The notes: a model not told the origin generated them from the sequence alone. 52,621 nt of DNA from Candidatus Omnitrophota bacterium (GCA_035352955.1 DAOPYQ010000012.1:1-52621), one strand, 5' to 3'. Counted from the first letter of the stretch, positions 4,076-36,695 are shown. Program-made: numbers and translations.

Positions 4076-7000
4076 ATGCCGTTCTCTCCGATGTCCGTCC
4101 ATCCGTTCTCTTCAACCCTCTCGAAGTTTTTTCGCACGGAACGTCACAAAGCGGTCCTTGCCGTGCTTGGGATGTTTTTGATCTCGGCGGCTACGGCTTT
4201 TGCGGCGGCGTCCTCGTTCAATGTTTTGGACGCGCGAGAACGGGGTGTGACCGTTTCGGGTTCGGCGAAAGGAAAGCTTACCGCGACCTATGACGAGGCT
4301 GCGAAGAAAGACATCCTCGAACTCGACTATGCGGTGGCGCAGGGGGAAACGGTCAGCGTTTGGGCGAAGAACTTTCCCGCGGAATTTGCAACGGCGGGCA
4401 TGAATTCTTCCAAGGTCAGTCTCCGGGGCACGGCCGAAAAAGCGGCCCAGATCACGGTGCGGATGGACCTTAAAGGGGCCACGGGCGTTCAGAATATTCC
4501 GCTCAAGGTCAAGGGCGGCTGGATCTCCACGCAAGAGGCGATCGATCTTACGAAGACCGGAGCCGTTAGTGAAGTCGTTTTTGTGGTCAGTCCTGTTGCG
4601 GGGGTTGCCTCCGTAAAAGACACCCTGGGGTTTGCTCTCGAGTTTGTAAAACAGGTGCCTGCGCAGAAGTCTGTTGTTGTCGCGCCTTCGGCCGTTGCGG
4701 CAAAAGTAAAAACGGTTGCAGCTCCTGTAGCCAAGACCGTCCAATCAGCCGTGGCGCCGGTCCAGAAGAAAGCTCTTTCCGGAATGGATGCGCTCTCTGC
4801 TGAAGATGCTTTGGAACCTTCCGCGAAAAATTTGAAAACTAAGGTGGTTGCGGCAGCTGCGGTTGTTTCCAAGCCTACCGTTGCTGTCAGTCCCGTGAAA
4901 GTTCCCGCGGCACCTGCGCGGTCGTCTTTCGGGCTTCTGGATGCCGGCGAGAAGGGTGTTTCCCCGGCAGGAACGGCCAAAGGGACCGTGACGTTCTCGT
5001 TTGATGAAGAAGCCAAAAAGGATGTCTACGATCTCGGGTACACATTGCCCGCCGGATCGTCGCTGACCGTTTGGACGAAGAAATTTCCCGCGGATCTGGT
5101 CGCAACCCAGGTGAACACGATTGCATTCGGCCTTCGCGCACTTGATCCCGCGCAATTGAACCAGATCTCCCTGAAAGCGGAGATCAAAGGGACCGGAGCC
5201 ACGCAGGTCATGCCTCTCAGTCTCAAACCGGGATGGAACGCCGTCGAGAAGACGATCCCGTGGGCGAAGATCGGCCAACTTACCGAAGTGGATCTTGTCA
5301 TCACTCCGAAAGGGAATGCCGGTTCCGTCAACGGAACCCTTTATCTCGGATTTGATTTTTGCAACACGTCTTTCCTGAAAAAATATTTGTTCCTGATGAA
5401 ATTTGGTGCCGTCGTTCTCTTCAGTTTCCTTTTGGCGTTTTTGGCCGGGTTGCTCTGGAAAATGTCCGGTTCGAACAAAGGGGCCAGCCCGGAATCCCGG
5501 GTCGGAAAGACGCTGAGCATTCTTTCTCCAGAAAAAGTTTCGGTAATGGCCCGTTTGAGGCAGGACTTTTTTTACGGAATCGTGACTGTGCTGATCGCGG
5601 GACTGACGCTCTGGATCTATGCGTCCGGCATGTCTCTCGTGGGCGCACTTGTCGCGGCATTGCTCGGAGTCGTGATCGCGGAAATGCTGAAGCTCCGTTT
5701 CGCCGGGAAGCACCTTGATGCAGGGGAAGTCTTTCAAAATGCGTTATTGACGGGGCTTTTGGCGGCGGCTTCCACGAAAATGGAACTATTGCAGGCGCCG
5801 GTCGCATGGGCCAACCTTTTAATGATCAGCGGCGTGACGGCGGCGGTCACTTTCGTGATCTATCAGCTTTTTAACGCTTCTTCGCTCGGCGCTTCCGGCA
5901 AGCACTTGAAGATGTCCACCGGCGCTTTGATCGTCGCGACGCCGTTTCTTTTCGGCTGGCTCCTGCTTCTGGAAAATGTAACGTTGCTTCAAACCTTGGT
6001 TTTTTGCCTGACGGGCGGGATTCTAGCTGCGTGGCCCGCGATTCTCGAATTCTTCGGCCGACTGCTGGTCGTATTTGCTTTCAATGAGATCCTGATCAAT
6101 GCGCTCGGCTTCGCCATGAAGGGCAAGCTTCTCAAAACCCTCAAGGCTCATGCGTATCTTCTTTTGGTGTCTTTGTGCGTGGTGGTCGCGCCCTCGATCG
6201 CCAATCTCGGCTCGGCCGCGGTGGTCGTTAGCTGGCATCCGGTGATCCGTGCGGTCATTTCCATTCTTCTGACCATGTTTTCGTTTGCCGGTCTTTGGGG
6301 AGAGATCTATCTCCTGACCGGGATTTTGCTCGATAGCGGTAAGCGTATCGCCCCGTCCGAAGAAAGCCTTTGGAAACATACGGTGGGTGGTATGCGCAAG
6401 GGTTTTGCGTTCAGCGGGATTCTGATGGCGATTCTGTATTTGATCAACCTGATCTTTAATACGTCGGTCGCGCAGCGGGTCATGGGTTCATTCCCGATCC
6501 CGACCGGGCTCTTGCTCGGAGCTTTGGTCTTTCCGTTCGTGAAGACCATTATCGAGACTTTCGACGGCAGTCTGCCGTTCTTTGAGCGCATGCGTTACAG
6601 CTACCGCCACTGGACACTTTATCTCCGTGGCGCGCTCGTGGGTTACGGGATGGCGGTCATGATCACCCAGGGATTTTTCCAAAAGACGATCTCGGAACGC
6701 GTGGTGTTCGGATTGATCATCGGCCTCTTGGCTTCCGGTGGTGTGAGTCTCATCCGCGACATTGTGTACGCGATGAAAGGTCAGGGGAAGGTCCAGTCGT
6801 GGAGGATGTATCTGATCGATTCGTGTCTCGGGGTGTTCCTCGGAAGTGCGATCGCGTTCTATCTAGATACGCCGCAGGTTTCCACGATCGTGTACAAGTT
6901 CAAACTTTATATGATGTCCCGGTTCACCGGCGCGGAGTACTCGACGCATCCTTATTTCAACAATCTCGGCCATTATGTCCAGCCGGTACTGCTCAGCAAA

Positions 7001-10000
7001 TGGGGTCAGATGGACCTCGGCTTTTGCCCGGGCGGCGTAAAGCTGCTGTTCACCGAATCTCTCGACGGCGTCATCAAGTGGTCGGTTGCGACGTGGCTTT
7101 TCGCGATCAATAAGGTGTTCATGCAGGCGTTCTTTGACAAGGACAAGACGCCGATCAAGTTTTTCTTCTCCAAGGCGGGTCTCGCGCAGCTGACCGAGCT
7201 GATGATCTATGTGCTTCGGTGGGGTCTTTGGATGTCGCCGATCATTTTCACGTTCCTCCGCATGATGCCGACCCCGACCTGGTACAACCAGGACGGCGCG
7301 ATCCGCACGATCATCGCGACCTGGAACAATATTACGATGTCCGCGCCGGCGTTCCAGGCGTGGAGCCTCAAGATCTTTGTCTGGATCCTCGCGTTCGATT
7401 TCTTCCGCGTCCTTATCTGGATGGACCACATGGGGCTTCGCGTGGCGACGCTTGTGAACCTGAGCTTCCTCGGGATGGACAAGCTTGACGAGAAGGTCGC
7501 CAAGTTCATCGGGCCGGCCGTTGCGCAGCGCTACATCCCCGAAGGGGTGAAGCGCTTCACGACATGGGCGCCGCTTTTGATTCCGTTCTACTTGCCCCGC
7601 GGCGAACAGTGGGATTATGTCTGGAATACGGCGGAAGGCATTCAGAATGCGAACCGTGGGAAAGGGTTGATCCCGGCGTTGCAATCTTTGTCCTTGTGGC
7701 AGATGACGCTTTTAGCGGTCGCGGCGGTCGTGCTTTGTACGGCGTTTTCGGCCGTGATCCGCGCGCTGCACCGTCGTGCGGAGCAGAAGCGTGTCAAAAA
7801 TTACGAGCTTGGGAACCGCGAATACAAGGTCACCCTCAAGGAAAATGGTGAAGTCTACAGCGAAGTGATCGCCAAGGAATCCGACGTGAGCCGCCGCTCG
7901 TACGATCTCATCGATCCCTGCGGCCGTATCCTTTATCTCGTAGACACCGCGGAAAAGCCCGGCAGCGCCGTGCGCACCTGGCCGGTGGCCGGGAATTTCC
8001 CGCAGGAATATTTCGAGCTTTCCCGCGCCGAACGCGGGGAGGATTCGCTGAAGCTTTTCAATACCTCGAACGGTGTGAGGACCACGATCGATATCACGCT
8101 GCCGGACCAGGACAGTACGGCCGAGATCTGGAACGTGACGATTGAGAACCTGACGGATAAGACCCGCCAGCTCAAGGTCGTTCCTTATTTGGAGTGGGTC
8201 CTGAACGGCTGGATGCACGACCGGTTCCACACGCAGTACCAGCGTCTCTATCCCGAAATGGAATACGTGAGTGCTGCGAATACGATCCTTGCCGCGAACA
8301 AGAGCACGAAGTCTATGGGATTTCTTGCCTGCGACGTTGCTCCGGAAGGTTTTCTGACCGGCCGCGTGGATTTCATCGGCCGCGCGCGCAGCATCTGGAC
8401 GCCCCGGGCCCTCGAGACGATGGACTTTCTCGAAGCCAAAGATACGCCGGGCTGTCCGACATTCGATCCTATCGGAAGCATGCTCGTTGGGATGACGGTG
8501 AATCCGCGCGAAGCCAAAACGATGCGCTTCATGATCGGCTTTGCGAAGAAAAAAGACCAGGCGCTGGGCCTTGTGAAAAAATATCTGAACCCGCAGCCGG
8601 CGAAATCCGCCGCTCCGGCGCCGGCTAAAAAGCGGTCGCTTTTGATCGGCCACGGGGAGATCCCTCCGGGAACCCCGCAGCCTTACTATGAATACAAGGA
8701 CAACGGGAACAAACTTCTGGTGCGCACGCCGTATACGCCGCGGCCTTTTGACCACGGCATGGCGAACCCGGTTCATTCGGTGATGGTTACGAACCGCGGG
8801 CTGCACACGTCCTGCAACGGAAATTCCCAGCAGAACCGCGTGACGCCGGATTGGCCGGACACGGTCACCCGGGAAGTACCCTCGGAAGCGATCTATCTTT
8901 ATGATCCGGATCGCGACCAATGGTTTTCTCCGACGCATCATCCGATTAATGATCCGAACGCCCACAACGAGGCGGAGTTCGGGGTCGACGGGACCGCGGT
9001 CTTTCGTATGTCGAACGGAACTCTTTCGACCGAGATGACGGTGTTTGTGCCGACCGAAGACCCGATGGGGGTTTATCTCCTGACCGTCCGCAACCATGAC
9101 GATCAACCGCGCCGGATCCGTGTCGCGCCGTATTTCCAGATGGCGCTCGCGTTCCAGCCGGAACGTTCGGGACCGCTCGGGACGAAGTACGACAAAGCCC
9201 TGGACGCGCTTTTCTTCGAGAATCCGCGCAATATTTTCCGTAACGGCCCGGCGTTCGCGTCGATGTCGATCCCGGCGGATTGCTATGAGACCAAGCGCGG
9301 CAGGTTTTTTGGAAGCGGCCGCGGGCCGGCCCATCCGTTCTTCGTGGAGCGGGGACAGTCGGACGCAACGCAACTGACCGATAGCGCGCAGGTCGCGGCG
9401 TTTCTCGGCGTGCTGGAACTTCCGGCGGGCGGGGAGAAGACTGTCGCGATCATTCTGGGACAGACTGACAGCCGCAAGAATGCGATCGAGCTTGTTCAGA
9501 AGTATAAAAATCTCGAGACCGTTCGCAAGACGCTCGATGAGACCCGGAAATGGTGGCTCGGGCTTATGGGTACCGCCCAGATCAAGACCAACGATCCCGA
9601 CTTCAACCGGTATCAAAACTGGCTCAAGTATCAGGCGCTGGCCGAGCGGATCTGGGCACGCCGCGGTTTCTATCAGACGAGCGGCGCGTTCGGTTTTCGC
9701 GATCAGCTGCAGGATACCGTGAACTTGACCTGGGTGGATCCGGCGCTTGCGCGTAAGCAGATTCTGTTGCACGCCTCGCAGCAGTTCATCGAGGGGGACG
9801 TGTTCCACTGGTTCTTCACGCTGACCGACGGCCGGAGCGCGTTCTCCTGCCGGTCGCACGCTTCCGACAATCTTCTTTGGATCGCGTGGGGCGTGGGCGA
9901 GTATGTCCGGATCACGGGCGATGAAACGATCCTGGATGAGATGACTTCGTATGTGGCGTCGGAGTTTCCGTTTGCGCCGCTTCCGAAGAACAAGCACGGG

Positions 10001-10999
10001 TGGGGTTCGCTTTACCAGCGCTCGACCCGCGCGGATTCCGTTTATCGCCACTGCATGCGATCGATCGACACCGTGCTCAACCATCGCATGGGCCGGAACG
10101 GTCTTCCGCTCATGGGCGTGGGGGACTGGAACGACGGTCTCGACGAGATCGGGAGCGCCGGGAAGGGCGAGAGCGTGTGGCTCGGGTTCTTCCTTTATTA
10201 CATCTTGAAAGAAATGCTCGGTGTGATCGAAAAGAAGGACGGTGTTAAGCGCCGGGATCATTACCGGAACAAGATGCAGGCCCTGGAGGCCGCACTTGAA
10301 AAGACCTGGCGCGAGGACCGCTATTTGCGCGCGATCCACGATGACGGGACCGAGATCGGCGTCAAGGGCAGCGGCGTTTGGGAGATTGATGCCTTGACCG
10401 CGGCCTGGTCGGTGTACACCGGTATCAATTTTGACCGGTCGGTCACGATCTTCAATACGGCTTTGAGCGTCCTTGAAAGGGGTAGTGTTATCCTTCTCGG
10501 ATGGCCAGCTCTACGCGAAGACACTAAGCCGTATCTCGGAAGAAGTAGCAAATATCCCGAGGGTGTTCGCGAGAACGGGATGTATTGTCACGGCGTTCAA
10601 TGGCTAGTTCGCGCCGCGCGTCTTCTGGCCGAAGAGTTCGAGAAGCGAGGCGATCGCGCAAAGGCGGATGAATATCGCGCGACCGCGTACCGCTTGTGGC
10701 GCAAGATTTCGCCGCTGGCGCATTTGACGCCGCAGGAGATCGAGATCTACGGCGGGCAACCTAACAAGCAACCAGCGGACTTTTTGACCACGTTCGAATC
10801 CGGGCGCATGATCTGGAACGGCTATACCGGAGCCGCCGGGTGGATGCTCCGTCAGGCGTTCGAAGGGGTTGCCGGCGCTTTGGTGGTGAAGAACCAGCTC
10901 GTTCTTCCGAAGGATCTCGACAAATCCCGGGGCAATCTCAAGATCGAAGGGATTTTCCGCGACATTAGTAAGAGTCCGTTCGCGGGGTCTTCGCGCTGA
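4076..10999 (+). CDS. Giant (2307 aa) envelope protein: N-terminal signal/anchor, two tandem CBM-like beta-sandwich repeats, large polytopic membrane block, C-terminal GH94-type glycoside phosphorylase module (NdvB/Cgs C-terminal-like)
   Basis: Single uninterrupted ORF with an ATG start. The internal duplication is FNVLDARERGVTVSGSAKGKLTATYDEAAKKDILELDY... against FGLLDAGEKGVSPAGTAKGTVTFSFDEEAKKDVYDLGY.... There are roughly 15-20 hydrophobic segments by eye between aa ~430 and ~1275. GH94-like motifs are GFRDQLQD, GDWNDGLDE and RENGMYCHGVQW. A strong intrinsic terminator follows. Confidence 0.85.
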   Translation: MPFSPMSVHPFSSTLSKFFRTERHKAVLAVLGMFLISAATAFAAASSFNVLDARERGVTVSGSAKGKLTATYDEAAKKDILELDYAVAQGETVSVWAKNFPAEFATAGMNSSKVSLRGTAEKAAQITVRMDLKGATGVQNIPLKVKGGWISTQEAIDLTKTGAVSEVVFVVSPVAGVASVKDTLGFALEFVKQVPAQKSVVVAPSAVAAKVKTVAAPVAKTVQSAVAPVQKKALSGMDALSAEDALEPSAKNLKTKVVAAAAVVSKPTVAVSPVKVPAAPARSSFGLLDAGEKGVSPAGTAKGTVTFSFDEEAKKDVYDLGYTLPAGSSLTVWTKKFPADLVATQVNTIAFGLRALDPAQLNQISLKAEIKGTGATQVMPLSLKPGWNAVEKTIPWAKIGQLTEVDLVITPKGNAGSVNGTLYLGFDFCNTSFLKKYLFLMKFGAVVLFSFLLAFLAGLLWKMSGSNKGASPESRVGKTLSILSPEKVSVMARLRQDFFYGIVTVLIAGLTLWIYASGMSLVGALVAALLGVVIAEMLKLRFAGKHLDAGEVFQNALLTGLLAAASTKMELLQAPVAWANLLMISGVTAAVTFVIYQLFNASSLGASGKHLKMSTGALIVATPFLFGWLLLLENVTLLQTLVFCLTGGILAAWPAILEFFGRLLVVFAFNEILINALGFAMKGKLLKTLKAHAYLLLVSLCVVVAPSIANLGSAAVVVSWHPVIRAVISILLTMFSFAGLWGEIYLLTGILLDSGKRIAPSEESLWKHTVGGMRKGFAFSGILMAILYLINLIFNTSVAQRVMGSFPIPTGLLLGALVFPFVKTIIETFDGSLPFFERMRYSYRHWTLYLRGALVGYGMAVMITQGFFQKTISERVVFGLIIGLLASGGVSLIRDIVYAMKGQGKVQSWRMYLIDSCLGVFLGSAIAFYLDTPQVSTIVYKFKLYMMSRFTGAEYSTHPYFNNLGHYVQPVLLSKWGQMDLGFCPGGVKLLFTESLDGVIKWSVATWLFAINKVFMQAFFDKDKTPIKFFFSKAGLAQLTELMIYVLRWGLWMSPIIFTFLRMMPTPTWYNQDGAIRTIIATWNNITMSAPAFQAWSLKIFVWILAFDFFRVLIWMDHMGLRVATLVNLSFLGMDKLDEKVAKFIGPAVAQRYIPEGVKRFTTWAPLLIPFYLPRGEQWDYVWNTAEGIQNANRGKGLIPALQSLSLWQMTLLAVAAVVLCTAFSAVIRALHRRAEQKRVKNYELGNREYKVTLKENGEVYSEVIAKESDVSRRSYDLIDPCGRILYLVDTAEKPGSAVRTWPVAGNFPQEYFELSRAERGEDSLKLFNTSNGVRTTIDITLPDQDSTAEIWNVTIENLTDKTRQLKVVPYLEWVLNGWMHDRFHTQYQRLYPEMEYVSAANTILAANKSTKSMGFLACDVAPEGFLTGRVDFIGRARSIWTPRALETMDFLEAKDTPGCPTFDPIGSMLVGMTVNPREAKTMRFMIGFAKKKDQALGLVKKYLNPQPAKSAAPAPAKKRSLLIGHGEIPPGTPQPYYEYKDNGNKLLVRTPYTPRPFDHGMANPVHSVMVTNRGLHTSCNGNSQQNRVTPDWPDTVTREVPSEAIYLYDPDRDQWFSPTHHPINDPNAHNEAEFGVDGTAVFRMSNGTLSTEMTVFVPTEDPMGVYLLTVRNHDDQPRRIRVAPYFQMALAFQPERSGPLGTKYDKALDALFFENPRNIFRNGPAFASMSIPADCYETKRGRFFGSGRGPAHPFFVERGQSDATQLTDSAQVAAFLGVLELPAGGEKTVAIILGQTDSRKNAIELVQKYKNLETVRKTLDETRKWWLGLMGTAQIKTNDPDFNRYQNWLKYQALAERIWARRGFYQTSGAFGFRDQLQDTVNLTWVDPALARKQILLHASQQFIEGDVFHWFFTLTDGRSAFSCRSHASDNLLWIAWGVGEYVRITGDETILDEMTSYVASEFPFAPLPKNKHGWGSLYQRSTRADSVYRHCMRSIDTVLNHRMGRNGLPLMGVGDWNDGLDEIGSAGKGESVWLGFFLYYILKEMLGVIEKKDGVKRRDHYRNKMQALEAALEKTWREDRYLRAIHDDGTEIGVKGSGVWEIDALTAAWSVYTGINFDRSVTIFNTALSVLERGSVILLGWPALREDTKPYLGRSSKYPEGVRENGMYCHGVQWLVRAARLLAEEFEKRGDRAKADEYRATAYRLWRKISPLAHLTPQEIEIYGGQPNKQPADFLTTFESGRMIWNGYTGAAGWMLRQAFEGVAGALVVKNQLVLPKDLDKSRGNLKIEGIFRDISKSPFAGSSR
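4214..5366 (+). other. Two tandem CBM-like repeats (approx 4214-4661 and 4928-5366) separated by an Ala/Val/Lys/Pro-rich linker, within the giant protein
   Basis: Protein-level self-similarity read directly from the translation. There is no DNA-level identity between the two. Confidence 0.7.
7799..10996 (+). other. GH94-like phosphorylase module of the giant protein (N-terminal beta-sandwich region plus (alpha/alpha)6-type catalytic region)
   Basis: Motifs GFRDQLQD (about 9690-9715), GDWND (about 10122-10136) and ENG.Y.H (about 10570-10595) match my recollection of conserved GH94 catalytic and phosphate-site motifs. Confidence 0.65.
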
Positions 11000-11054: not shown

Positions 11055-11313
11055 GAGGGCGAAGATCCATATCCGAAGGAGTTTCTTTTTTGAATTTTGG
11101 GATAGAATCTCCTATTCGGAACGGCATTCTTTTCCTATAATTGCCGATAATCCGGGTTGTGACGTTTCGGGAGGAATGCGTTGTCTGAGGCTGTGACTGG
11201 GAATGCATGCCCAATGTTCTTAGGATCCCGTTCCCAAGGATTGCTCGCGGTGGGGAGAGGTTGTTGACGCGTTCGTGTCAGGCTTGGTTCTTTTCTCGTG
11301 GTTAATGAGAGTT

Positions 11314-11387
<74 letters not shown>

Positions 11388-11466
11388 TGTTTTTATAAGT
11401 TGTTCTTTATGGAACGGGAAATTTTTTCCGGGGTTCCGGTCAAAGTCCGTTCCGGACAAATCAATT

Positions 11467-12495
11467 ATGAAAAATAGATTTCTGTGTGTTTTTCTGTTCG
11501 TTGTCTTTACCGCAACGGCTGTTTTCCCGCCGAGGGTGGCGGAAGCGGCGTCTTTGTCCCTGGCGGCTCCCTCCGTGGTTCTTTTGGACGGCGGCACCGT
11601 AGTCTATGCCAAGTTCCCTCATGCGAAGCGAGCGCCGGCGAGTACGACCAAGCTTGTGACCGTGATGGTCGCGCTGGATCATCTTCCTCTGGACCGGATC
11701 GTGACGATACCGCCCGGGCTTGAGTATATCCAGCCTTCCAAGATCGGTCTCTATGGCGGCGAACGTTTTTATGTCCGAGACCTTGTGAAGGCTGCGCTGG
11801 TTAAATCTGCCAACGATGCGGCCGAGGCTTTGGCGATCCTGACAGCAGGTTCGCGGCCGGCGTTCGCGAGGCTCATGAACCAGAAAGCGCAGAGCGTCGG
11901 AGCCTATAATTCGCGGTTCGTGAATCCCGCGGGTTTACCGGCGGAGGGACAGTATTCGACCGCCTTCGATCTTGCCAGGATCATCATGGCGGCATCCCGT
12001 TATCCTTATCTGGTCCAGGCCATGAAAGTCCGCGAGGCGGCGATCTCGACGTTGGACGGGCGCAGGATCTATCTCAGAAATTGCAACAAGATGCTTTGGC
12101 GTACGTCGAGCGTAATCGGTAAAACGGGCTGGACCCGCACGGCCAAGCATTGTTTCGCGGGACGCGTGCAGGCAGGGAACCGGGTGATCTACGTCGGGAT
12201 CATGGGGAGTGCGAGGCGGCAGTATCTTTGGTCGGATCTTGTCCGCATCTCAGCGTTCGCTTCCGGAGGAACGTTCACTCCGGTGAAGATCGAAGGCGGC
12301 GGACTCCCTTCGCGGAAAGATACGCGGAATATCCAGAAGGCTTTGCAACGGGCCGGTTACTTTAAGGGAAATCCCACCGGGTTTTTCGGGAAACGGACGA
12401 AATCAGCGGTCCGGAACTTTCAGAAGGCTAACGATCTTCCTGTGACGGGAACCGTTGGCCCCAGGACTTGGAAAAAACTCAAAAAGTTTATGTGA
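11467..12495 (+). CDS. D-alanyl-D-alanine carboxypeptidase (S11 low-MW PBP) with C-terminal peptidoglycan-binding domain
   Basis: Signal peptide. SxxK (ASTTK), SxN (SAND) and KTG (GKTGWT) motifs. C-terminal PG_binding_1-like segment IQKALQRAGYFKG...FQKANDLPVTGTVGPRTWKKL. Confidence 0.88.
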   Translation: MKNRFLCVFLFVVFTATAVFPPRVAEAASLSLAAPSVVLLDGGTVVYAKFPHAKRAPASTTKLVTVMVALDHLPLDRIVTIPPGLEYIQPSKIGLYGGERFYVRDLVKAALVKSANDAAEALAILTAGSRPAFARLMNQKAQSVGAYNSRFVNPAGLPAEGQYSTAFDLARIIMAASRYPYLVQAMKVREAAISTLDGRRIYLRNCNKMLWRTSSVIGKTGWTRTAKHCFAGRVQAGNRVIYVGIMGSARRQYLWSDLVRISAFASGGTFTPVKIEGGGLPSRKDTRNIQKALQRAGYFKGNPTGFFGKRTKSAVRNFQKANDLPVTGTVGPRTWKKLKKFM

Positions 12496-12543: not shown

Positions 12544-14733
12544 ATGCGAAAACAGACAGGATGGGCGAAAGATTTTGCGCTTCCGCTCTTGTTGTTGGGC
12601 GTCTGCCTTGCGGGCTGTTCCGTTCAAATGCCCCAGCCTCCGCCAAAAGAAATGCCGGCCGCGTCCGTTGCGGGATCTCCCAAAACCGTGTCCAAGGTTC
12701 CCGAAGTCCAAATGATCGCCGATTTTGAAACTTCGGATGGGAAGATCATCAATAACCTCGGCGGCGAAAGCGGCGACTGGAACCTCAATCCCTCGGATAT
12801 CAATAATTCCTTTACCGACCCGCGGATCGTGACGGCCCCCGGCAAGGACGGCAAGGAAAGCCGTATGTTGCAGCTGACCTACAGCGTGGACTCCAGTATC
12901 CCGGCCCAGAATGGTTTCTGGACAAAGCTTCGCGACCTCGACGGCAGGAAATATGACCATTTCGAGCTCGATATCAAAGGCGATGCTCAGAAAGGTTTTA
13001 CCGAAAAATTCCGGATCGAGATCAAAAAGTGTCTGGATGATAGCTGCGTCCAGAGCGTCAAAGGTTCGGCAGTTATTCCCGTGACGGGGGAATGGAAGAC
13101 CGTGAGTATTCCGCTTAATGCGTTGACGGGGCTGATCGACTTTGCAAACCCGGAATGCTGGAAAAATCCGCGCCTGAGCTACGATTCACTCGACGAACTG
13201 ATCATTATCTTCAACGACAAGTTCGTGACCAAGAAGTCCGGCCGGATATTTCTCGATAACCTCCGGTTTGTGAATACCGGCGTTCCCGGTCCGAGCGCGG
13301 TGGATTTTCCACCCCGCGAAACCCGGAAAACGACGATCCCTCACGGGACCGTGGAATTTGCGAAATTTCTCGCCAAACGTTTGAAAGGATTCCCCAAAAC
13401 GGTGGTAGTGAAAAAGGAGTTTCCGGCGGAGGAGAAGGCGTTCCTGACCGAGGTCGCGCGTGATACCTGGCGATTTTTCGACGAGATCGTCGATTCCGAA
13501 AATCATCTGCCATTGGACAATATTCTGCTGGGAGAAAAGGAGCCCTTCTCCGAAGGGGTGTGGATCGGGGATTACACGAATGTCACGAACGTCGGCGTTT
13601 ATATCATGTCGGTGGTGAGCGCGCTCGATATGGGGTTTATCACGCGGGAAGATGCCGTTGGACGTATCCGGAACAGTCTTTCGGTCGTCGAGAAGCTCAA
13701 ATGCCATTCGAGCGGTTTTCCTTACAATTATTACGACACGACCGTGCTGGATCCGACGAGCTACTTTATCTCTTTTGTCGATAGCGGCTGGCTCATGCTC
13801 GGTCTTTATGTCGCCAAGGGTGCTTTTCCCGCCGAACTTTCCGAACAGGCCTCCCGGATGCTCAACCGTGTGAATTTCAATTTCTTTTATGATCCTGTCG
13901 AGAACCAGATGTTCCACGGGTTCTACGATAACCTCGGGGTGTATTCGGATTACCATTACGGCGTTTTCTATTGTGAGCCGCGGGCGGCGGCTTATGTCGC
14001 GATCGCGCGAGGGGACATTCCGGAAAAACACTGGTTCGAGGGGATGGTCCGCACTTTTCCGGCGAATTACGGGTGGCAGTCGCAGACGCCGAAAGACCGC
14101 GTGGAAAAGACCGTTCTCGGTTATACCTATGCCGGCGGCTACTATGAATGGAAAGATCTGAAATATGTTCCAAGCTGGGGTGGTTCGGCTTTCGAGGCGT
14201 TGATGCCGCCGCTTATTTTAAAGGAAAAAGAGTTGGCGCCGGAGGGACTCGGGGCCAACAATGTCGCGCATGTCCGCGGTCAGATCCGTTATGCCATGGA
14301 GGAGTTGAAACAGCCGGCCTGGGGGATGAGTCCCGCGTCGGTTCCCGGAGGGACTTATTCGGAATACGGCGCGAAACCGTTCGGGATCAAAGGCTACAAG
14401 GCCGGGGTCGTGACGCCGCATGCGAGTGCCCTCGCGCTGGAGTACGCTCCTGCCGAAGCCGTGGCGAATCTCCGCAAGCTCATCCAGCTTTATGAGATCT
14501 ATGGCGAATACGGTTTTTATGACGCCGTGGATGTCGCGACCGGAAAGGTTGCGAGAAAATATCTCGCGCTTGACCAGGCGATGATCCTGATCGCGATCAA
14601 CAATTATCTTAATGACGGCGCGATCCGGAAGCGTTTCCACGCCGACCCTCAGATCCAGAAGGCCGAAAAGCTTCTCTCCGCCGAAAAGTTTTTTGAACCC
14701 TCCGGGAAAGCTCCGGAAGCGGCCCAATCGTGA
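12544..14733 (+). CDS. Lipoprotein with N-terminal CBM-like beta-sandwich and C-terminal GH144/DUF3131-type (putative glucoamylase fold, beta-1,2-glucanase-like) domain
   Basis: Lipobox LLLGVCLAGCS. CBM-like segment (FWTKLRDLDGRKYDHFELDIKGD...FRIEIKK...GEWKTVSIPL...IFLDNLRF). C-terminal alpha/alpha-toroid-like motifs (GFPYNYYDT, SWGGSAFEALMPPL, TPHASALAL, YGEYGFYDAVD, LALDQAMILIAINNYL). The CDS itself is very likely; the family assignment is from memory. Confidence 0.65.
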   Translation: MRKQTGWAKDFALPLLLLGVCLAGCSVQMPQPPPKEMPAASVAGSPKTVSKVPEVQMIADFETSDGKIINNLGGESGDWNLNPSDINNSFTDPRIVTAPGKDGKESRMLQLTYSVDSSIPAQNGFWTKLRDLDGRKYDHFELDIKGDAQKGFTEKFRIEIKKCLDDSCVQSVKGSAVIPVTGEWKTVSIPLNALTGLIDFANPECWKNPRLSYDSLDELIIIFNDKFVTKKSGRIFLDNLRFVNTGVPGPSAVDFPPRETRKTTIPHGTVEFAKFLAKRLKGFPKTVVVKKEFPAEEKAFLTEVARDTWRFFDEIVDSENHLPLDNILLGEKEPFSEGVWIGDYTNVTNVGVYIMSVVSALDMGFITREDAVGRIRNSLSVVEKLKCHSSGFPYNYYDTTVLDPTSYFISFVDSGWLMLGLYVAKGAFPAELSEQASRMLNRVNFNFFYDPVENQMFHGFYDNLGVYSDYHYGVFYCEPRAAAYVAIARGDIPEKHWFEGMVRTFPANYGWQSQTPKDRVEKTVLGYTYAGGYYEWKDLKYVPSWGGSAFEALMPPLILKEKELAPEGLGANNVAHVRGQIRYAMEELKQPAWGMSPASVPGGTYSEYGAKPFGIKGYKAGVVTPHASALALEYAPAEAVANLRKLIQLYEIYGEYGFYDAVDVATGKVARKYLALDQAMILIAINNYLNDGAIRKRFHADPQIQKAEKLLSAEKFFEPSGKAPEAAQS

Positions 14734-15428
14734 TCTTTCAGGAAAATCCGGCAGGCATTTTCCGCGTCGAGATACTGGGTCCCGGTGTCTGTGCCGCGTT
14801 CTCGTCCCGCACGTTTGATAATTCCAGACGCGAAGAATACCTCCGTCTGCTTTCGCTAGATCCCCGACAGCTCGTTATGGTCAAACAGGTGCATGGCAGC
14901 GGGGTCCTTGCAGTCAAAGGAACTGATCCGGGACTTTTAGAAGAGCCCGCGGACGGATTGATCACCGGAACGCCGGGGCTTGTTCTTGGGATCCGGACAG
15001 CAGACTGCGTGCCGGTTTTTTTCTGGGACGCTTCAAAGAGGGTTGCCGGGATCGCGCACGGCGGGTGGAAGGGCGTGAAGGCTGGGATCATTAGCCGCAT
15101 GCTGAACGGCTTTGAACGGGAGTTTGGGACGGACGTGAAAGATCTTAAGGTTGTTTTTGGTCCATCGATCCGCAAATGCTGTTATGAAGTCGGCAAGGAA
15201 TTCCTCGGCCATTTTCCGGGCTTTTATCGCAGGAAGGACGCCTCGAAAGGGTTGCTGGACCTTGTGGGCGTGATCCGGGACAGGCTGGTCAAACGGGGAG
15301 TTCCCGGCGCGCAGATCCATGACACGGGGCTTTGCACCGTCTGCCGGAACGAAACGTTTTTTTCCTATCGGAACGACAGCCAGACCCAAGAGCGCATTCT
15401 GAATATTATCAGCATTTTGCCCGCGTGA
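14730..15428 (+). CDS. pgeF: Peptidoglycan editing factor PgeF (YfiH/DUF152 family purine nucleoside phosphorylase/laccase-domain protein)
   Basis: VKQVHGSGV, ADGLIT, RTADCVPVFF, HGGWKG, CCYEVG and CTVC...FFSYR motifs. GTG start in a GTGA overlap with the upstream stop. Confidence 0.85.
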   Translation: MIFQENPAGIFRVEILGPGVCAAFSSRTFDNSRREEYLRLLSLDPRQLVMVKQVHGSGVLAVKGTDPGLLEEPADGLITGTPGLVLGIRTADCVPVFFWDASKRVAGIAHGGWKGVKAGIISRMLNGFEREFGTDVKDLKVVFGPSIRKCCYEVGKEFLGHFPGFYRRKDASKGLLDLVGVIRDRLVKRGVPGAQIHDTGLCTVCRNETFFSYRNDSQTQERILNIISILPA

Positions 15429-17745: not shown

Positions 17746-17829
17746 GCTGGGATGGCGAAACTGGCAGACGCGCTAGCTTCAGGAGCTAGTGGCCGCAAGG
17801 CCTTGGGGGTTCAAGTCCCCCTCTCAGCA
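17746..17829 (+). tRNA. tRNA-Leu (anticodon CAG), class II with long variable arm
   Basis: 84 nt: acceptor GCTGGGA/TCTCAGC (one G-U pair), anticodon arm CTAGC-TTCAGGA-GCTAG, variable arm GGCC-GCAA-GGCC, T arm GGGGG-TTCAAGT-CCCCC, discriminator A. Confidence 0.9.
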
Positions 17830-17934
17830 CTTTTTCTCAATGAAAAAGTACGATGCCGTGAGGGGCTAACGAAAACCCTCTCCACACCGTACTTTTGTAC
17901 TGCAGTGAATGTTTTTTATGACCCACCGGCGGCT

Positions 17935-18441
17935 ATGACAAAGAAAAAAAAAGAAGACACTTCTCCCAAGCCGGTTAAAAACTCGTTCGAGGTCATTGCC
18001 GAGAACCGCAAGGCTCACTTCGACTATTTCATCCAAGACCGATATGAAGCCGGACTTTGTCTTCACGGGCATGAGGTCAAATCAATCCGCGAACGGCGGG
18101 TGAACCTCAAGGACAGTTTTGTCCGCGTCATGCGGAACGAAGCGTTTCTGATCAATTGCCACATCTCTCCCTATTCAAAGATCCAGGGGTATGTCGACAG
18201 CGAACCGACCCGGATGCGGAAACTTCTTCTTAATCGCAGTGAGATCAATAAATTGATGGGGCAGTCGGCGCGGAAGGGGTACGCGATCATTCCTCTGCGG
18301 CTTTATTTCAAGAAAGGTCATGTGAAGGTCGAAATCGCGCTCGGGCAGGGGAAAAAGCAGTATGACAAGCGCGCGGCCATCAAACAAAGGATCCATACGC
18401 GTGAAGCGGCGGTGGCCGTGAAAAAAGCGACGCGGTCGTGA
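17935..18441 (+). CDS. smpB: SsrA-binding protein SmpB
   Basis: IAENRKAHFDYFI, EAGLCLHGHEVKSIR and a basic C-terminal tail. The track ORF (17752) begins inside tRNA-Leu, so I chose ATG 17935 (MTKKKKED...), which gives a normal-length SmpB. Confidence 0.9.
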   Translation: MTKKKKEDTSPKPVKNSFEVIAENRKAHFDYFIQDRYEAGLCLHGHEVKSIRERRVNLKDSFVRVMRNEAFLINCHISPYSKIQGYVDSEPTRMRKLLLNRSEINKLMGQSARKGYAIIPLRLYFKKGHVKVEIALGQGKKQYDKRAAIKQRIHTREAAVAVKKATRS

Positions 18442-23820: not shown

Positions 23821-25311
23821 ATGCGCAAACGTCTTGAAGATCTGTTCCAGGGGATTGCGGTCCTCGAGAAACAACACTGGGATCCCAAGCGCATCATTCA
23901 CAAGATCACTTCCGATTCCCGCGCCGTCGAATCCGGGGATATTTTTGTCGCCTGCCGAGGCAATCGCATGGACGGGCATGATTTCCTCAGCCAGGCGATC
24001 TACGCCAAGGCCGCCGTCGTGGTTTTCGAAAAAGAACCCGACATCATGATCCCGCCTCACGTGACGGGCGTTCGTGTCCGGGATTCGCGGGTTGCTTTGG
24101 CCGTACTGCTGAACCGTTTTTATGACTGCCCGGACCAGAAAGTGAAACTGATCGGCGTGACTGGAACGAACGGGAAGACCACCACGAGCTATCTTCTGCA
24201 TCGCTTGTTGCGGGAAAAAGGTCCCACGGCGTATTTGGGCACGCTCTGGTATGAACTTCCGACGGGCAAGGTGACTTCGGTCAACACGACGCCGGGGCCC
24301 GAGGTTCTTATCCCGATGTTCCACCAGATGGAGGAAGAAGGGGTGAAACATTGTCTGATGGAAGTTTCCTCCCACGCCATTGACCAGAAGCGTGTGTATG
24401 GTCTCGAATTCGAGCTTGGCATTTTTACCCAGCTGACGCAAGACCATCTGGATTACCACCACAGCATGGAACACTATTTTCAGACGAAGCGCGATTTTTT
24501 TGCGTCTGTCACGCCGCCGAGAAAGATGCTTTTCAACAAGGATTGCCCGTACGGAAGACGGTTGATCGAGGAATGGCCTGAAGCAAAGACCTACAGCGTG
24601 TTGGGTGAGGCGGATTATTGCATCAAAGACCTCAAAATGAGTTTTCAGGGAAGCCGGTTTCTCCTTTGTTGCAACGGCCAGGAAATATCGTTCCAGATTC
24701 GGTTGCCGATGCGCTACAACGTTTCCAACGCCCTGACGATTCTTGCGGCGATCGATCTTCTCGGTTTTGATCTTCAGGATTTCCGGGGAGCCCTGGAAGA
24801 GATCCCTGCGATTCCGGGTCGCATGGAACGGGTCGGGACGGGTACGGACTTTACGGTATTCGTGGATTATGCCCATACACCGGACGCGTTTGAACAGGTT
24901 CTTCATGATGCCAAGCAGATGGAATCCAAGCGGATCATCACGGTTTTCGGTTGCGGCGGCGACCGCGATAAGGGAAAACGTCCGCTGATGACGCGAGCCG
25001 CCTGCGCCTATTCCGATATTGTGATCATGACCACCGATAATCCGCGGTCTGAGGATCCCGAAGAGATCTTTCGCGATATGCGGAAAGGGCTTCCGCATCC
25101 GGTGCCTGCTGAGGGGCGTATCAAGGAGATCCAGGATAGGGAAGAGGCGATCCAGCAGGCGATCGCCATCGCCAAAGCGGGGGATGTCATCTTTGTTCTC
25201 GGCAAAGGGCATGAGGAATACCAGATTCTGGCCGACGGAAAAGTTCCTTTCAGTGACCGCGAGGTCGTCGAGGCCGCTCTTAAACGAAAAAGCCGTGTTT
25301 TCCTATCCTGA
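23821..25311 (+). CDS. murE: UDP-N-acetylmuramoyl-L-alanyl-D-glutamate--2,6-diaminopimelate ligase
   Basis: GVTGTNGKTTT P-loop and the DNPR motif (TTDNPRSEDP) typical of meso-DAP-adding MurE. Confidence 0.95.
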   Translation: MRKRLEDLFQGIAVLEKQHWDPKRIIHKITSDSRAVESGDIFVACRGNRMDGHDFLSQAIYAKAAVVVFEKEPDIMIPPHVTGVRVRDSRVALAVLLNRFYDCPDQKVKLIGVTGTNGKTTTSYLLHRLLREKGPTAYLGTLWYELPTGKVTSVNTTPGPEVLIPMFHQMEEEGVKHCLMEVSSHAIDQKRVYGLEFELGIFTQLTQDHLDYHHSMEHYFQTKRDFFASVTPPRKMLFNKDCPYGRRLIEEWPEAKTYSVLGEADYCIKDLKMSFQGSRFLLCCNGQEISFQIRLPMRYNVSNALTILAAIDLLGFDLQDFRGALEEIPAIPGRMERVGTGTDFTVFVDYAHTPDAFEQVLHDAKQMESKRIITVFGCGGDRDKGKRPLMTRAACAYSDIVIMTTDNPRSEDPEEIFRDMRKGLPHPVPAEGRIKEIQDREEAIQQAIAIAKAGDVIFVLGKGHEEYQILADGKVPFSDREVVEAALKRKSRVFLS

Positions 25312-26701
25312 CGCCAGCCGACTGCTCGGCATGGCTCCTCAATTTCCGGAGCCTTCGTTAGCACTTCGTAGCTTTTCCATCGATACCCGTACCCTGAAGC
25401 CGCAAGATCTTTTCATTGCCTTCAAGGGCGAGAACAGTGACGGGCATGAATTCGTGGCCGCCGCTTTCGAGAAGGGGGCCTCGGGCGCCCTGATCGATGA
25501 AAAACAGACGGGGACCGTGATGGCTGCCGTCCGGAAGGCGAATGGGACGCTCCGGAATATTTTTCCGGTCCGAGACCCGCAGGCAGCCATGACTTTGCTC
25601 GCGAAAGAATATCGGAAGACCCTTCCTGTCCGGATCGCCGGCATCACTGGGAGTGTCGGTAAGACCACGACCAAGGAATTCCTTTATTATCTTTTGCGGC
25701 AAAAATATCCGGTGCTTGCGACTTCCGGGAATCTTAACAATCATCTCGGAGTTCCGATCATGTTGTCGCGACTTGAGAAAGAACACCGCTTCTGTGTGTT
25801 GGAAATGGGCGCGAGCCATCCCGGGGAGATCGGGTATCTTGCCGATCTTGCGAAGCCTTCGGCCGGAATCCTGACGCCGATCGGACCGGCGCATCTTGAG
25901 GGGTTCGGATCACTTGAGAATGTGTATGAGACGAAACTGGAACTCGCGGATGCGTTAGCGGCGGGTGACCCGCTGGCCGTTCCCGATCATAACGAACGCT
26001 TGCTGGAAAAACTCCGCAAGAGATCCCGGAAATTTTTTACCGTAGGGCCTTCCGTCCAGGCGGATTACCGGACCGGAGACATTCAGGTCCGGAACGGCGA
26101 GGTTTCGTTTACCGTGAACGGGAAATGGCGTTATTCGTTTCCGGGACAGGCGGCCTTTTTGGTGCTGAATGCCGGGCTTGCGATTGCGATGGCGCGAAGT
26201 CTCGGGGTCGAAGGGGAAGAAATACCGGAAAAATGGCAGGATGTGGGCTTTGCATCGGGGCGGTTTCGTGAGACAATACTGCCTAACGGGGTGCATGTGA
26301 TCGACGACAGTTACAACGCAAATCCCGTTTCTTTTGAGAATGCCCTGAAAGCCTTTCAAACGACTCCCGTGGCCGGAAAAAGGGTCGTTGTGTTTGCGGA
26401 TATGCGGGAACTCGGGACGGACGAAGAACGTTTCCACCGGGAATTGGGAGAAAAGATTGCGGTTTCGGGGATCGATCATGCGCTGGGTTATGGTCGGCTG
26501 GCCCGCGCGAGCGTTGAGGCTATTTCAGGTTCCGGGACTTCCTGCGTCGCGGGGCATTTTAAAGGGGCGGCGGAGGTGGTTGCGGTTTTGAAGGAGATTC
26601 TCCGGCCAGGCGATACCGTGCTTTTTAAAGGGTCGCGAAGCATGCATGTAGAGAAGGTCCTCGAGGGTGTCCGGGAGATTTCTTTTTTTGCACAAAAATA
26701 A
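25295..26701 (+). CDS. murF: UDP-N-acetylmuramoyl-tripeptide--D-alanyl-D-alanine ligase
   Basis: SIDTRTLKPQDLFIAFKGENSDGHEF and GITGSVGKTTTKE. GTG 25295 places IDTR at about the same distance from the N-terminus as in characterised MurF. ATG 25331 is the alternative, and the track start 25184 is an over-extension into murE. Confidence 0.88.
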   Translation: MFSYPDASRLLGMAPQFPEPSLALRSFSIDTRTLKPQDLFIAFKGENSDGHEFVAAAFEKGASGALIDEKQTGTVMAAVRKANGTLRNIFPVRDPQAAMTLLAKEYRKTLPVRIAGITGSVGKTTTKEFLYYLLRQKYPVLATSGNLNNHLGVPIMLSRLEKEHRFCVLEMGASHPGEIGYLADLAKPSAGILTPIGPAHLEGFGSLENVYETKLELADALAAGDPLAVPDHNERLLEKLRKRSRKFFTVGPSVQADYRTGDIQVRNGEVSFTVNGKWRYSFPGQAAFLVLNAGLAIAMARSLGVEGEEIPEKWQDVGFASGRFRETILPNGVHVIDDSYNANPVSFENALKAFQTTPVAGKRVVVFADMRELGTDEERFHRELGEKIAVSGIDHALGYGRLARASVEAISGSGTSCVAGHFKGAAEVVAVLKEILRPGDTVLFKGSRSMHVEKVLEGVREISFFAQK

Positions 26702-26721
26702 TTTTTAACACGCGCTGAGCC

Positions 26722-27807
26722 ATGTTTTATTTCCTCCATAACCTAAAAGACGTTTCGATCCTTTTTAACATCTTCCGCTACATCACGTTCCGCTCCGCCG
26801 CGGCCAGCGTTACCGCTTTTTTTCTCTGCCTCTGGTTCGGTCCCGTCTGCATCGCGTGGTTGAAACGGCTCCGTGCCGTGACCGATCAGGAACGGGATTT
26901 TATCGAGTCGATCCACGATCAGTTCAAACACAAAAAGGACGTCCCGATGATGGGAGGCGTTCTGATCGTGGGGAGCGTGGTCGTTTCCGTGCTGCTCTGG
27001 GGGAATCTTCTGAACCGGTTCGTCTGGATGATGATCCTTGTGACGCTCTGGTTCGGCTTCGTGGGCTTCCTGGACGACTGGCTCAAGATGCGGACCAAAA
27101 GCTCGGATGGCCTTAGTTCGCTCACAAAACTTCTCGGGCAGGTCCTGATGGGGCTCGCGATCGGGATTTATCTTTATCTCGACCCGAATTTTGACAAGAC
27201 GCTGTATGTGCCGCTGCTCAAGAAGGGGCTTTTCGATCTCGGGATTTATTTCGTTCCTTTTGTGATCCTTGTGCTCGCGGGGGCCTCGAACGCGCTCAAT
27301 TTGACGGATGGGCTGGACGGGCTTGCGATCGGATGCACGATGTTCGCGACTACGACCTTTGCGCTTATCATTTACGTGACTGGACACGCGGATTTTGCGG
27401 CTTATCTGGCGATCCCGTTCGTGCCCGAGGCTGCGGAGGTGACAGTTTTTTGCGCGGCGTTGGCCGGAGCGAGCGCCGGGTTCCTGTGGTTCAATTCTTA
27501 TCCGGCCGAGGTTTTTATGGGAGACACGGGGTCGCTTTCGCTGGGCGGTGCCCTTGGGACGATGGCCGTTCTCACTAAAAAAGAGATCGTCCTGGTTATC
27601 GTCGGCGGGATCTTTGTATGGGAAGCGATCTCAGTGATCCTCCAGGTGGCGAGTTTTAAACTTACCAAGAGAAGGATCTTTTTGATGTCACCGTTCCACC
27701 ATCATCTCCAGCGCAAGGGCTGGCCGGAATCCAAGATCACGACCCGGCTCTGGATCATCGCGTTCATCCTGGCCATCGTTGGCCTCAGCACTTTAAAGGT
27801 TCGCTGA
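26722..27807 (+). CDS. mraY: Phospho-N-acetylmuramoyl-pentapeptide transferase
   Basis: NLTDGLDGLA and FMGDTGSLSLGG motifs in a polytopic membrane protein. Confidence 0.95.
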   Translation: MFYFLHNLKDVSILFNIFRYITFRSAAASVTAFFLCLWFGPVCIAWLKRLRAVTDQERDFIESIHDQFKHKKDVPMMGGVLIVGSVVVSVLLWGNLLNRFVWMMILVTLWFGFVGFLDDWLKMRTKSSDGLSSLTKLLGQVLMGLAIGIYLYLDPNFDKTLYVPLLKKGLFDLGIYFVPFVILVLAGASNALNLTDGLDGLAIGCTMFATTTFALIIYVTGHADFAAYLAIPFVPEAAEVTVFCAALAGASAGFLWFNSYPAEVFMGDTGSLSLGGALGTMAVLTKKEIVLVIVGGIFVWEAISVILQVASFKLTKRRIFLMSPFHHHLQRKGWPESKITTRLWIIAFILAIVGLSTLKVR

Positions 27808-27808
27808 T

Positions 27809-29077: not shown

Positions 29078-29080
29078 ACT

Positions 29081-30178: not shown

Positions 30179-30179
30179 T

Positions 30180-34506: not shown

Positions 34507-34515
34507 AAGGGAACC

Positions 34516-36581: not shown

Positions 36582-36584
36582 AAT

Positions 36585-36617
36585 CGGAAGACCGCCTCCG
36601 GAAGATTCCGTTTTTTT
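36585..36617 (+). terminator. Candidate intrinsic terminator after ftsA
   Basis: Outer stem CGGAA (36585-36589) / TTCCG (36606-36610) encloses an inner CCG/CGG stem, followed by T7 (36611-36617). Confidence 0.5.
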
Positions 36618-36631
36618 CCTTTCATAAAAAA

Positions 36632-36660
36632 GTAGCAAGCCGCGTTTTTTGGAGTATAAT
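36632..36660 (+). promoter_or_regulatory. Candidate promoter of the gcv operon (-10 TATAAT at 36655-36660; weak -35 GTAGCA)
   Basis: Perfect -10 hexamer 36 nt upstream of the gcvT ATG. Motif match only. Confidence 0.3.
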
Positions 36661-36695
36661 CCTCTCTCCTTTTTCAAATCCGGCATTTCTTATTT

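Follow-up and report, generated by a model that had tools for sequence, protein, structure and literature searches.

A Cgs-type GH94 phosphorylase module fused to a novel polytopic membrane domain in Omnitrophota and its genetic association with exported β-1,2-glucan-active enzymes

The window analysed here is a whole 52,621-nt stretch of DNA from a Candidatus Omnitrophota bacterium (GCA_035352955.1, DAOPYQ010000012.1:1-52621), and coordinates refer to it unless another locus is named. The product of its open reading frame (ORF) at 4076..10999 on the plus strand, labelled BIG, consists, from the N to the C terminus, of a signal peptide or signal anchor, two β-jelly-roll repeats resembling carbohydrate-binding modules (CBMs), a membrane block of ~805 residues and a complete GH94 phosphorylase module of the type found in cyclic β-1,2-glucan synthases (Cgs). 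In BIG, a known catalytic module is combined with a membrane domain of a novel kind, and the resulting architecture is both new and conserved. Its membership of a conserved, uncharacterized protein family that joins a polytopic membrane domain to a Cgs-type GH94 module is well supported. The features of the gene are the following.

4076..10999, plus strand: whole gene for the membrane-embedded GH94 protein BIG, one unbroken ORF of 2307 aa (ORF list, translation)
4076..4207, plus strand: signal peptide or signal anchor (aa 1-44), read from the sequence
4208..4675, plus strand: CBM-like β-jelly-roll repeat 1 (aa 45-200), AlphaFold2 and Foldseek
4676..4900, plus strand: flexible linker rich in Ala, Val, Lys and Pro (aa 201-275), by composition
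4901..5380, plus strand: CBM-like β-jelly-roll repeat 2 (aa 276-435), placed in one family alignment with repeat 1 (35% identity)
5381..7795, plus strand: conserved polytopic membrane block (aa 436-1240), hydropathy and AlphaFold helices
7796..8695, plus strand: first supersandwich of GH94, equivalent to Cgs GP1 (aa 1241-1540), PF06165 with E 1.2e-30 and a match at aa ~1245-1488
8696..9550, plus strand: second supersandwich of GH94, equivalent to Cgs GP2 (aa 1541-1825), best PF06165 stretch at aa 1555-1795
9551..10876, plus strand: catalytic (α/α)6 domain of GH94 (aa 1826-2267), PF17167
9701..9703, plus strand: active-site D1876, aligned with Cgs D2393
10133..10135, plus strand: active-site D2020, aligned with Cgs D2528

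Only two Pfam families, PF06165 and PF17167, are called on the whole BIG protein, both far above threshold, and no NCBIfam model matches it. A one-genome-per-species scan gave 164 candidate stretches encoding relatives, 80 of which were read. By record title, these 80 loci comprise 47 Omnitrophota, 14 unclassified, 10 Planctomycetota, 4 Elusimicrobiota and 5 others, with the caveat that some labels of metagenome-assembled genomes (MAGs) may be wrong. The family occurs mainly in Omnitrophota; further members come from MAGs that carry the labels Elusimicrobiota, Planctomycetota and Auribacterota, among others. The membrane block, GP1 and GP2/3 occur together in 56 of 59 complete main ORFs across phyla, most of which are 2040-2716 aa long, and the identical 2307-aa product is encoded, among the same neighbours, on at least six contigs of different metagenome assemblies. 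These two observations rule out a fusion or assembly artefact. A first-pass annotation made from the sequence alone had called the architecture undescribed, which agrees with the literature search: no description of GH94 fused to such a membrane domain was found in the literature, the word “membrane” is absent from the text searched of a 2022 review of glycoside phosphorylases, and glucans are not mentioned in the main Omnitrophota survey.

An exhaustive HMMER search with the membrane-block profile returned 634 cluster representatives at an E value of ≤1e-3, and the best 150 of these 634 matches are all clear members of the BIG family. Among them are forms of ~1650-1870 aa in which the repeats and the first helices are missing and the membrane block is nonetheless joined to a full GH94 module. 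These repeat-less forms and the variable number of repeats (see below) indicate that the core unit is the membrane block plus GH94 and that the CBM-like modules are accessory. A word-indexed protein search with the membrane block gave 18 matches (single sequence) or 14 matches (57-sequence profile), all ≤1540 aa long and mostly partial; the word-indexed collection seems to hold no very long proteins, while the genomes encode proteins of 2000-2700 aa, which would bias architecture surveys. At one locus, that of “Candidatus Kaelpia imicola” (P0006 locus; L081:10001-16197), the homologue is split into ORFs of 1512 aa and 567 aa that overlap by 46 nt, probably through a frameshift or sequencing error, and a Glycoamylase-family gene lies ~3 kb downstream of the second ORF.

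The C-terminal module belongs to GH94, as the first-pass annotation had proposed from its motifs. Glyco_hydro_94 (PF17167) matches with 196.7 bits (cut-off, 27) and GH94_b-supersand (PF06165) with 237.6 bits over two stretches (cut-off, 23), and the motifs lie at aa 1873 (GFRDQLQD), aa 2016 (GDWNDGLD) and aa 2165 (RENGMYCHGVQW). Among solved structures, the module is closest to the phosphorylase half of Agrobacterium Cgs (E values of 1e-108 to 1e-109; 370 bits), with BIG aa 1542-2305 aligned to Cgs chain residues 2036-2790 and the profile of the first supersandwich aligned to Cgs 1537-1819 (GP1). The module is collinear with Cgs GP1-GP3; the same annotation had likened the β-sandwich region preceding the catalytic domain to that of cellobiose and β-1,2-oligoglucan phosphorylases and of Cgs. 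Cellobiose phosphorylase matches the module with an E value of 2e-37. The β-1,2-oligoglucan phosphorylase (SOGP) of Lachnoclostridium phytofermentans (LpSOGP; 5h3z) reaches an E value of 0.004 and only 17.8 bits, a marginal score that assigns the GH94 module of BIG to the Cgs branch and not to the SOGP branch. According to the published domain boundaries, a Rossmann-fold-like insert (residues 1847-2012) separates GP1 from GP2 in Cgs (PMC10901819). This 165-aa insert is absent from BIG, in which just ~65 low-complexity residues (aa ~1489-1554) lie between the supersandwich matches.

The catalytic Asp (general acid), whose loss the first-pass annotation had named as grounds for refutation, and the second active-site Asp are conserved. 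D1876 (GFRDQLQD) and D2020 (GDWNDG) correspond to D2393 and D2528, the residues that were mutated to inactivate the Cgs phosphorylase (PMC10901819). Both are invariant in 62 family members, as are the motifs RENGMYCH and GYTGAAGW, and all four scored motifs are invariant in every member. R1875, H2172 and T2251-G2252 are likewise invariant in the 62 sequences, and these motifs are the putative phosphate site by analogy with the structures of cellobiose and chitobiose phosphorylases. The invariance of the active-site motifs speaks for catalytic activity in all members of the family, and the GH94 module of BIG itself appears, from its sequence, to be catalytically competent.

The membrane block had been described in the first-pass annotation as ~850 residues with 15-20 hydrophobic segments, which is close to the ~805 aa and ~17-19 membrane helices obtained by combining hydropathy, alignment-averaged hydropathy and AlphaFold helices (aa 436-1240). 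Across 57 sequences, the mean column identity of the block is 62%, and it contains 14 invariant or nearly invariant Trp residues as well as many invariant Arg, Asp and His residues. Conserved motifs include ETFDGSLPFFER, RWGLWMSP, WYNQDG (within WYNQDGAIR) and WMDHMGLR, together with RWGLWMSPIIFTFLRMMP, WMDHMGLRVATLVNLSF and KRFTTWAPLLIPFYLPRG. Conservation of this kind is expected of an active or substrate-contacting domain rather than of an anchor.

The block is not recognizably related to any family searched. Noise aside, aa 1-1320 match no Pfam family, including any glycosyltransferase (GT), at an E value of ≤10, and the 57 membrane blocks scanned singly at an E value of ≤1 match no GT, transporter or acyltransferase family and carry no sensor signature. 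The 57-sequence profile has no match at an E value of ≤10 among PDB sequences, a set that includes full-length Cgs. The reported absence of a GT84 transferase is confirmed by these searches. No internal repeats were detected in the block by hhalign, and neither the model helices nor hydropathy leaves between the helices a cytoplasmic domain big enough for a GT2 fold.

A Foldseek comparison had been recommended for the block and was made with an AlphaFold model built on an alignment of 16 sequences. The model has a mean pLDDT of 64, being good at aa ~440-930 and poor at aa ~950-1200, the most conserved part, and with this model nothing significant was found in the PDB (best E value, 0.45; all TM scores, ≤0.24). 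Twelve of the top 50 matches are MOP flippases (MurJ, Wzx and MATE-type proteins), and this likeness was rejected as noise (E value of ~1; TM score of <0.16). The block has no sequence match and, with this model, no significant fold match to known transporter, flippase or synthase folds (MFS, MOP, ABC, GT-C or BcsA-type). After the last helix comes a strongly basic stretch, RALHRRAEQKRVK, and the alternation of basic loops is consistent with an N-out/C-in arrangement. From these sequence features and the positive-inside rule, we infer that the GH94 module lies in the cytoplasm and that the repeats lie outside, in the periplasm.

The N terminus of BIG reads as the signal or anchor expected from the first inspection, with an n-region rich in Lys and Arg that precedes a hydrophobic core (aa 26-44) and a candidate AFA/AA cleavage site predicted from the sequence. 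The two domains that follow are separated by a 75-residue linker (A19, V16, K10, S7 and P6). Repeat 1 was modelled with AlphaFold2 as a β-jelly-roll (pLDDT, 94.8; pTM, 0.88), and its top Foldseek matches are the CBM11 structures 6r3m and 1v0a (E value of 6e-7; probability of 1.00; TM score of 0.54-0.60), followed by CIA30, CBM22 and CBM4. At the sequence level, none of 42 repeat units matches the CBM11 profile PF03425 at an E value of ≤1, the repeat profile finds no PDB sequence at an E value of ≤10, and neither a repeat hidden Markov model nor BLAST picks up the neighbouring CBM11-like proteins; the likeness is one of fold only. The models support the term CBM-like at the fold level, with carbohydrate binding as a putative function. 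The earlier description of two tandem CBM-like domains therefore stands as to fold (CBM11-type) and has to be refined as to their place in the family, in which they are accessory, with a copy number of 0 to 5. In some genomes the repeat is a separate ORF: in three it is a small ORF directly upstream of a repeat-less big gene (L069:9243-9983, L066:4618-5613 and L079:9370-9828), and genomes of this kind include the complete 1.43-Mb Omnitrophota chromosome CP070780.1. Such ORFs could be a genuine split or the result of a frameshift.

Downstream of BIG in the window lie the following features.

11313..11388, plus strand: tRNA-Arg(TCT) (ARAGORN, Rfam)
11467..12495, plus strand: exported S11 D-Ala-D-Ala carboxypeptidase with a peptidoglycan-binding domain (Pfam; signal peptide in the translation)
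12544..14733, plus strand: exported lipoprotein of 729 aa with a CBM11-like and a GH189-like domain (LAGC lipobox; Pfam Glycoamylase and DUF3131)

The lipoprotein refines the first picture of the locus, since a Cgs cyclase-like (GH189-like) domain does occur there, as a separate exported protein. Its best PDB matches are the cyclization domain of TiCGS (8wy1; E value of 8.5e-43) and the CY domain of Cgs (E value of 8e-41), with weaker matches to GH144 enzymes (E values of 1e-10 to 1e-14) and to CBM11 (1v0a; E value of 0.01). Along its entire length it shares 51% identity with the product of the gene directly downstream of BIG in the L033-type operon described below; it is the orthologue of that product and the conserved partner of BIG. 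The tRNA-Arg gene stands in the 467-bp gap between BIG and the carboxypeptidase gene, and BIG is therefore probably not cotranscribed with the lipoprotein gene. L001 and L022, both close relatives, share this gene order, and the functional link of the carboxypeptidase to BIG is uncertain.

A Cu-oxidase_4 family gene (14730-15428), which we take to belong to the PgeF/YfiH family, begins within the end of the lipoprotein gene, with a 4-nt overlap at the stop codon that points to cotranscription of the two. Further downstream, a tRNA-Leu(CAG) gene (17746-17830) overlaps the 5' end of the called SmpB ORF (17752-18441), whose SmpB domain begins at residue 82, so that the true start codon is probably downstream. 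A dcw-type cluster occupies 23821-37793 and contains murE, murF, mraY, murD, ftsW, murG, murC, murB, ddl and an ftsA-like gene, as well as an ORF with no Pfam match (34516-35331); gcvT directly follows the cluster, and ftsZ was not seen at its usual place after ftsA. No GT was found among the window genes scanned, and the remaining genes are otherwise housekeeping genes and the dcw cluster.

Across the 80 loci, the only widely recurrent neighbour of BIG is a GH144/GH189-like gene, found within ~8 kb in 18 loci (40 copies). About 10 loci share a conserved operon, which begins with genes for a solute-binding protein (SBP), in some cases a soluble GH94, a response regulator, a histidine kinase, a CBM11-like protein, a GH144 enzyme and a tetratricopeptide repeat (TPR) protein. 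BIG comes next and is followed by genes for a GH189-like enzyme, two ATP-binding cassette (ABC) permeases, a membrane-anchored protein of unknown function, a ROK protein and an M48 peptidase. The upstream enzyme is a genuine relative of GH144 endo-β-1,2-glucanases (XcSGL, 5e-65; CpSGL, 5e-44). The GH189-like and GH144 enzymes each have their own CBM11-like domain, Pfam-detectable CBM11-like domains are also present in other operon proteins, and all accessory proteins carry export signals. In addition, a GH35 gene lies two genes upstream at an Elusimicrobia locus (L076), with an Ignavibacterium β-1,2-glucosyltransferase as the best match of its product (1e-109). The association of BIG with exported β-1,2-glucan-active enzymes is established at the genetic level. 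Specificity of its own GH94 module for β-1,2 linkages would accord with these neighbours (GH144, GH189-like and the GH35 protein resembling a β-1,2-glucosyltransferase).

Other neighbours are less telling. The operon SBP is a generic CUT1-family binder, for which the sophoro-oligosaccharide binder Lin1841 ranks 17 (E value of 2.5e-16). The TPR protein, encoded directly upstream of BIG in 11 loci, was considered as a BcsC/PgaA-like outer-membrane secretin, and this was rejected, as no β-barrel region is evident. No GT family recurs among 107 further neighbours.

Two operon proteins deserve separate mention. The soluble GH94 of some operons (L069:2915-5287, and at the starts of L026 and L054) is 790 aa long and just 29% identical to the BIG GH94 module; its best solved relative is the Cgs phosphorylase domain (2e-159), slightly ahead of cellobiose phosphorylase (1e-145). 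Cluster c27 (L033:19454-20224; also L039, L040, L054, L056, L069 and L077) is a conserved ~250-aa protein with one transmembrane anchor, encoded after the ABC permeases. It has no Pfam match and no BLAST similarity to the CBM11-like protein, and its C-terminal part looks by eye like a β-sandwich or CBM.

The first-pass annotation had suggested that BIG might couple capture or translocation of a β-glucan to phosphorolysis, and the gene context favours this idea and ties the system to β-1,2-glucan. Tentatively, and with somewhat less than even confidence, we propose that BIG is the inner-membrane part of a β-1,2-glucan utilization or turnover system, in which the membrane block feeds periplasmic chains to the cytoplasmic GH94 module. 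The exported GH189-like and GH144 enzymes would open or cut periplasmic or extracellular β-1,2-glucan, including cyclic glucan, which has no free ends, and the tethered CBM-like modules would keep the chains at the membrane. A linear chain would then pass through the Trp-rich membrane block, with its non-reducing end leading, and reach the GH94 active site on the cytoplasmic side. Processive phosphorolysis there would free α-glucose-1-phosphate, so that the bond energy would be kept without ATP and the chain ratcheted inward. Topology, β-1,2 specificity, translocation and direction are all presumed in this scheme. Phosphorylases run degradatively at physiological ratios of phosphate to glucose-1-phosphate. 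The preferred role, in catabolism or turnover, fits both this usual direction and the partners (ABC importer, ROK protein, two-component system and hydrolases).

Several observations weigh against such a role. That the membrane block translocates anything is purely something that we infer, and its fold matches no transporter, channel or synthase by Foldseek, with a model that is poor at aa ~950-1200. An SBP-dependent ABC importer is already present in the operons, which makes a second import route not obviously needed, and the operon SBP is not specifically Lin1841-like. For the GH94 module as for the partner enzyme, the best matches are modules of Cgs, a biosynthetic enzyme. Furthermore, the window and many close relatives contain no sugar-uptake operon, the neighbours being envelope and housekeeping genes; in the window a tRNA gene stands between BIG and the GH189-like gene; and the association with GH144/GH189-like genes is seen in just 18 of the 80 loci.

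The main alternative, which we regard as unlikely, is that BIG works in the opposite direction, as a phosphorylase-driven synthase and exporter; the similarity of the GH94 module and of the partner enzyme to Cgs modules speaks for it. The GH94 module, acting in reverse, would use glucose-1-phosphate in the cytoplasm to lengthen the chain at its non-reducing end. The membrane block would extrude the chain, reducing end first, as in the cellulose synthase BcsA, with the CBM-like modules guiding it, as in BcsB. The exported GH189-like transglycosylase would finally cyclize or trim the product into periplasmic or envelope β-1,2-glucans. Such a system would be an analogue of Cgs that is independent of nucleotide sugars and whose cyclase step has moved outside the cell. 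As BIG and its neighbourhoods contain no GT, any synthesis of β-1,2-glucan by these bacteria would have BIG as its sole observed candidate. The window clade is set among envelope genes (DD-carboxypeptidase, polysaccharide deacetylase, Cu-oxidase_4 and the dcw cluster ~12 kb downstream), and the TPR protein directly upstream in 11 loci recalls synthase-dependent exopolysaccharide operons, in which genes for a TPR protein and for a periplasmic hydrolase are typical as well. Export of the product could also pull the reversible reaction toward synthesis. Nevertheless, phosphate greatly exceeds glucose-1-phosphate in cells, which disfavours net synthesis, and we know of no established bacterial glucan that is made in vivo by a GH94 enzyme. 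The operon partners look catabolic (SBP, ABC permeases, ROK protein, two-component system, GH144 hydrolase and soluble GH94), the TPR protein lacks an outer-membrane β-barrel, and no primer or initiation function is evident.

It is similarly improbable that BIG is a membrane-anchored phosphorylase without translocation. Here, GH94 would degrade oligosaccharides imported by the ABC transporter, or trim or recycle the glucan of an unlinked synthase, and the membrane block would be a transporter scaffold, would sense glucan via the CBM-like modules to gate GH94, or would carry out a separate enzymatic modification. The presence of an ABC importer in the best-conserved operons, the adjacent histidine kinase and response regulator genes, and the lack of a recognized channel-like fold in the block are all consistent with this. 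There is also a precedent for a structural role, as the C-terminal phosphorylase half of Cgs has a scaffolding function independent of catalysis (PMC10901819). Against it, the block spans 800 aa, has a column identity of 62% and invariant polar and aromatic residues, and is obligatorily paired with GH94 across phyla, all of which goes far beyond what an anchor needs. An ABC transporter or two-component system is missing from the surroundings of many loci, and no signature of a sensor, acyltransferase or other enzyme family was found in the block. There is next to no chance that BIG is an ordinary Cgs with a hidden, divergent GT84, or a misassembled or frameshifted fusion ORF: no GT is detected by Pfam, the membrane-block profile misses Cgs in the PDB, there is no GT2-sized cytoplasmic domain, and the ORF is identical in independent assemblies.

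To our knowledge, glycoside phosphorylases are soluble catabolic enzymes, except for GH94 inside Cgs. BIG represents a new setting, the obligatory fusion of such a Cgs-type enzyme with a large and highly conserved membrane domain in poorly understood phyla, and the family may provide an undescribed way of moving glucan across a membrane. It is a realistic possibility that the membrane domain constitutes a new type of polysaccharide conduit. The full claim, that it is a new class of polysaccharide-conducting domain and that BIG translocates glucan with a phosphorylase, in place of ATP or nucleotide sugars, as its source of power, is doubtful. In its boldest version, BIG may be a GT-independent β-1,2-glucan synthase and exporter; in a milder one, it may import polymeric glucan by a phosphorolytic ratchet. 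If the block does conduct glucan, coupling of polymer translocation to phosphorolysis or its reverse would be a new transport principle, and under the bolder version Omnitrophota would possess a Cgs-like pathway divided between the two sides of the membrane. The occurrence of two of the three Cgs modules as a membrane-split pair offers a handle on the evolution of Cgs. The findings also widen the catalogue of β-1,2-glucan systems, suggest that ultra-small, possibly host-dependent Omnitrophota harvest or make such glucans, and correct database labels such as “cyclic β-1,2-glucan synthetase” on proteins without any synthase domain.

Cgs (ChvB/NdvB; 8rf0 and 8rf9; PMC10901819) is one of the closest known systems. 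The C-terminal ~1065 aa of BIG are collinear with its phosphorylase half, both active-site aspartates are shared, both are inner-membrane proteins with GH94 in the cytoplasm (predicted in the case of BIG), and a cyclase-type (GH189-like) domain is present at the BIG locus. BIG differs in having no Cgs N-terminal domain, GT84, in-chain cyclase (no Glycoamylase or DUF3131 match) or Rossmann-like insert, in its ~17-19 unrelated transmembrane helices, compared with 6 in Cgs, and in its periplasmic CBM-like modules. As it contains neither the GT84 synthase domain nor the cyclase domain, BIG does not qualify as a cyclic glucan synthase. At the BIG locus, the cyclase-like domain belongs to an exported lipoprotein of its own and hence acts on the other side of the membrane from the Cgs cyclase domain.

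The bacterial cellulose synthase BcsA-BcsB is a purely functional analogue and shares the concept of a cytoplasmic catalytic domain under a glucan-conducting channel topped by periplasmic jelly-roll carbohydrate-binding domains, and its operons also encode a periplasmic glycoside hydrolase and a TPR protein. There is no likeness in sequence and no detectable one in fold; BIG is a phosphorylase rather than a GT2 enzyme using UDP-glucose, and its TPR neighbour lacks a β-barrel. The repeats of BIG share the β-jelly-roll fold of CBM11 of Clostridium thermocellum Lic26A-Cel5E (1v0a and 6r3m) and of CIA30, and not their sequence family. The SOGPs (Listeria innocua Lin1839 and LpSOGP) are soluble, have no membrane domain or CBM-like modules and have marginal sequence similarity to BIG. 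Nevertheless, they too are GH94 enzymes, ~1100 aa long, in which a further β-sandwich domain is present at the N terminus, and their clusters likewise combine an SBP-dependent ABC sugar importer with β-1,2-glucan-degrading enzymes. The cytoplasmic phosphorolysis of β-1,2-linked chains that they perform is the role proposed here for BIG.

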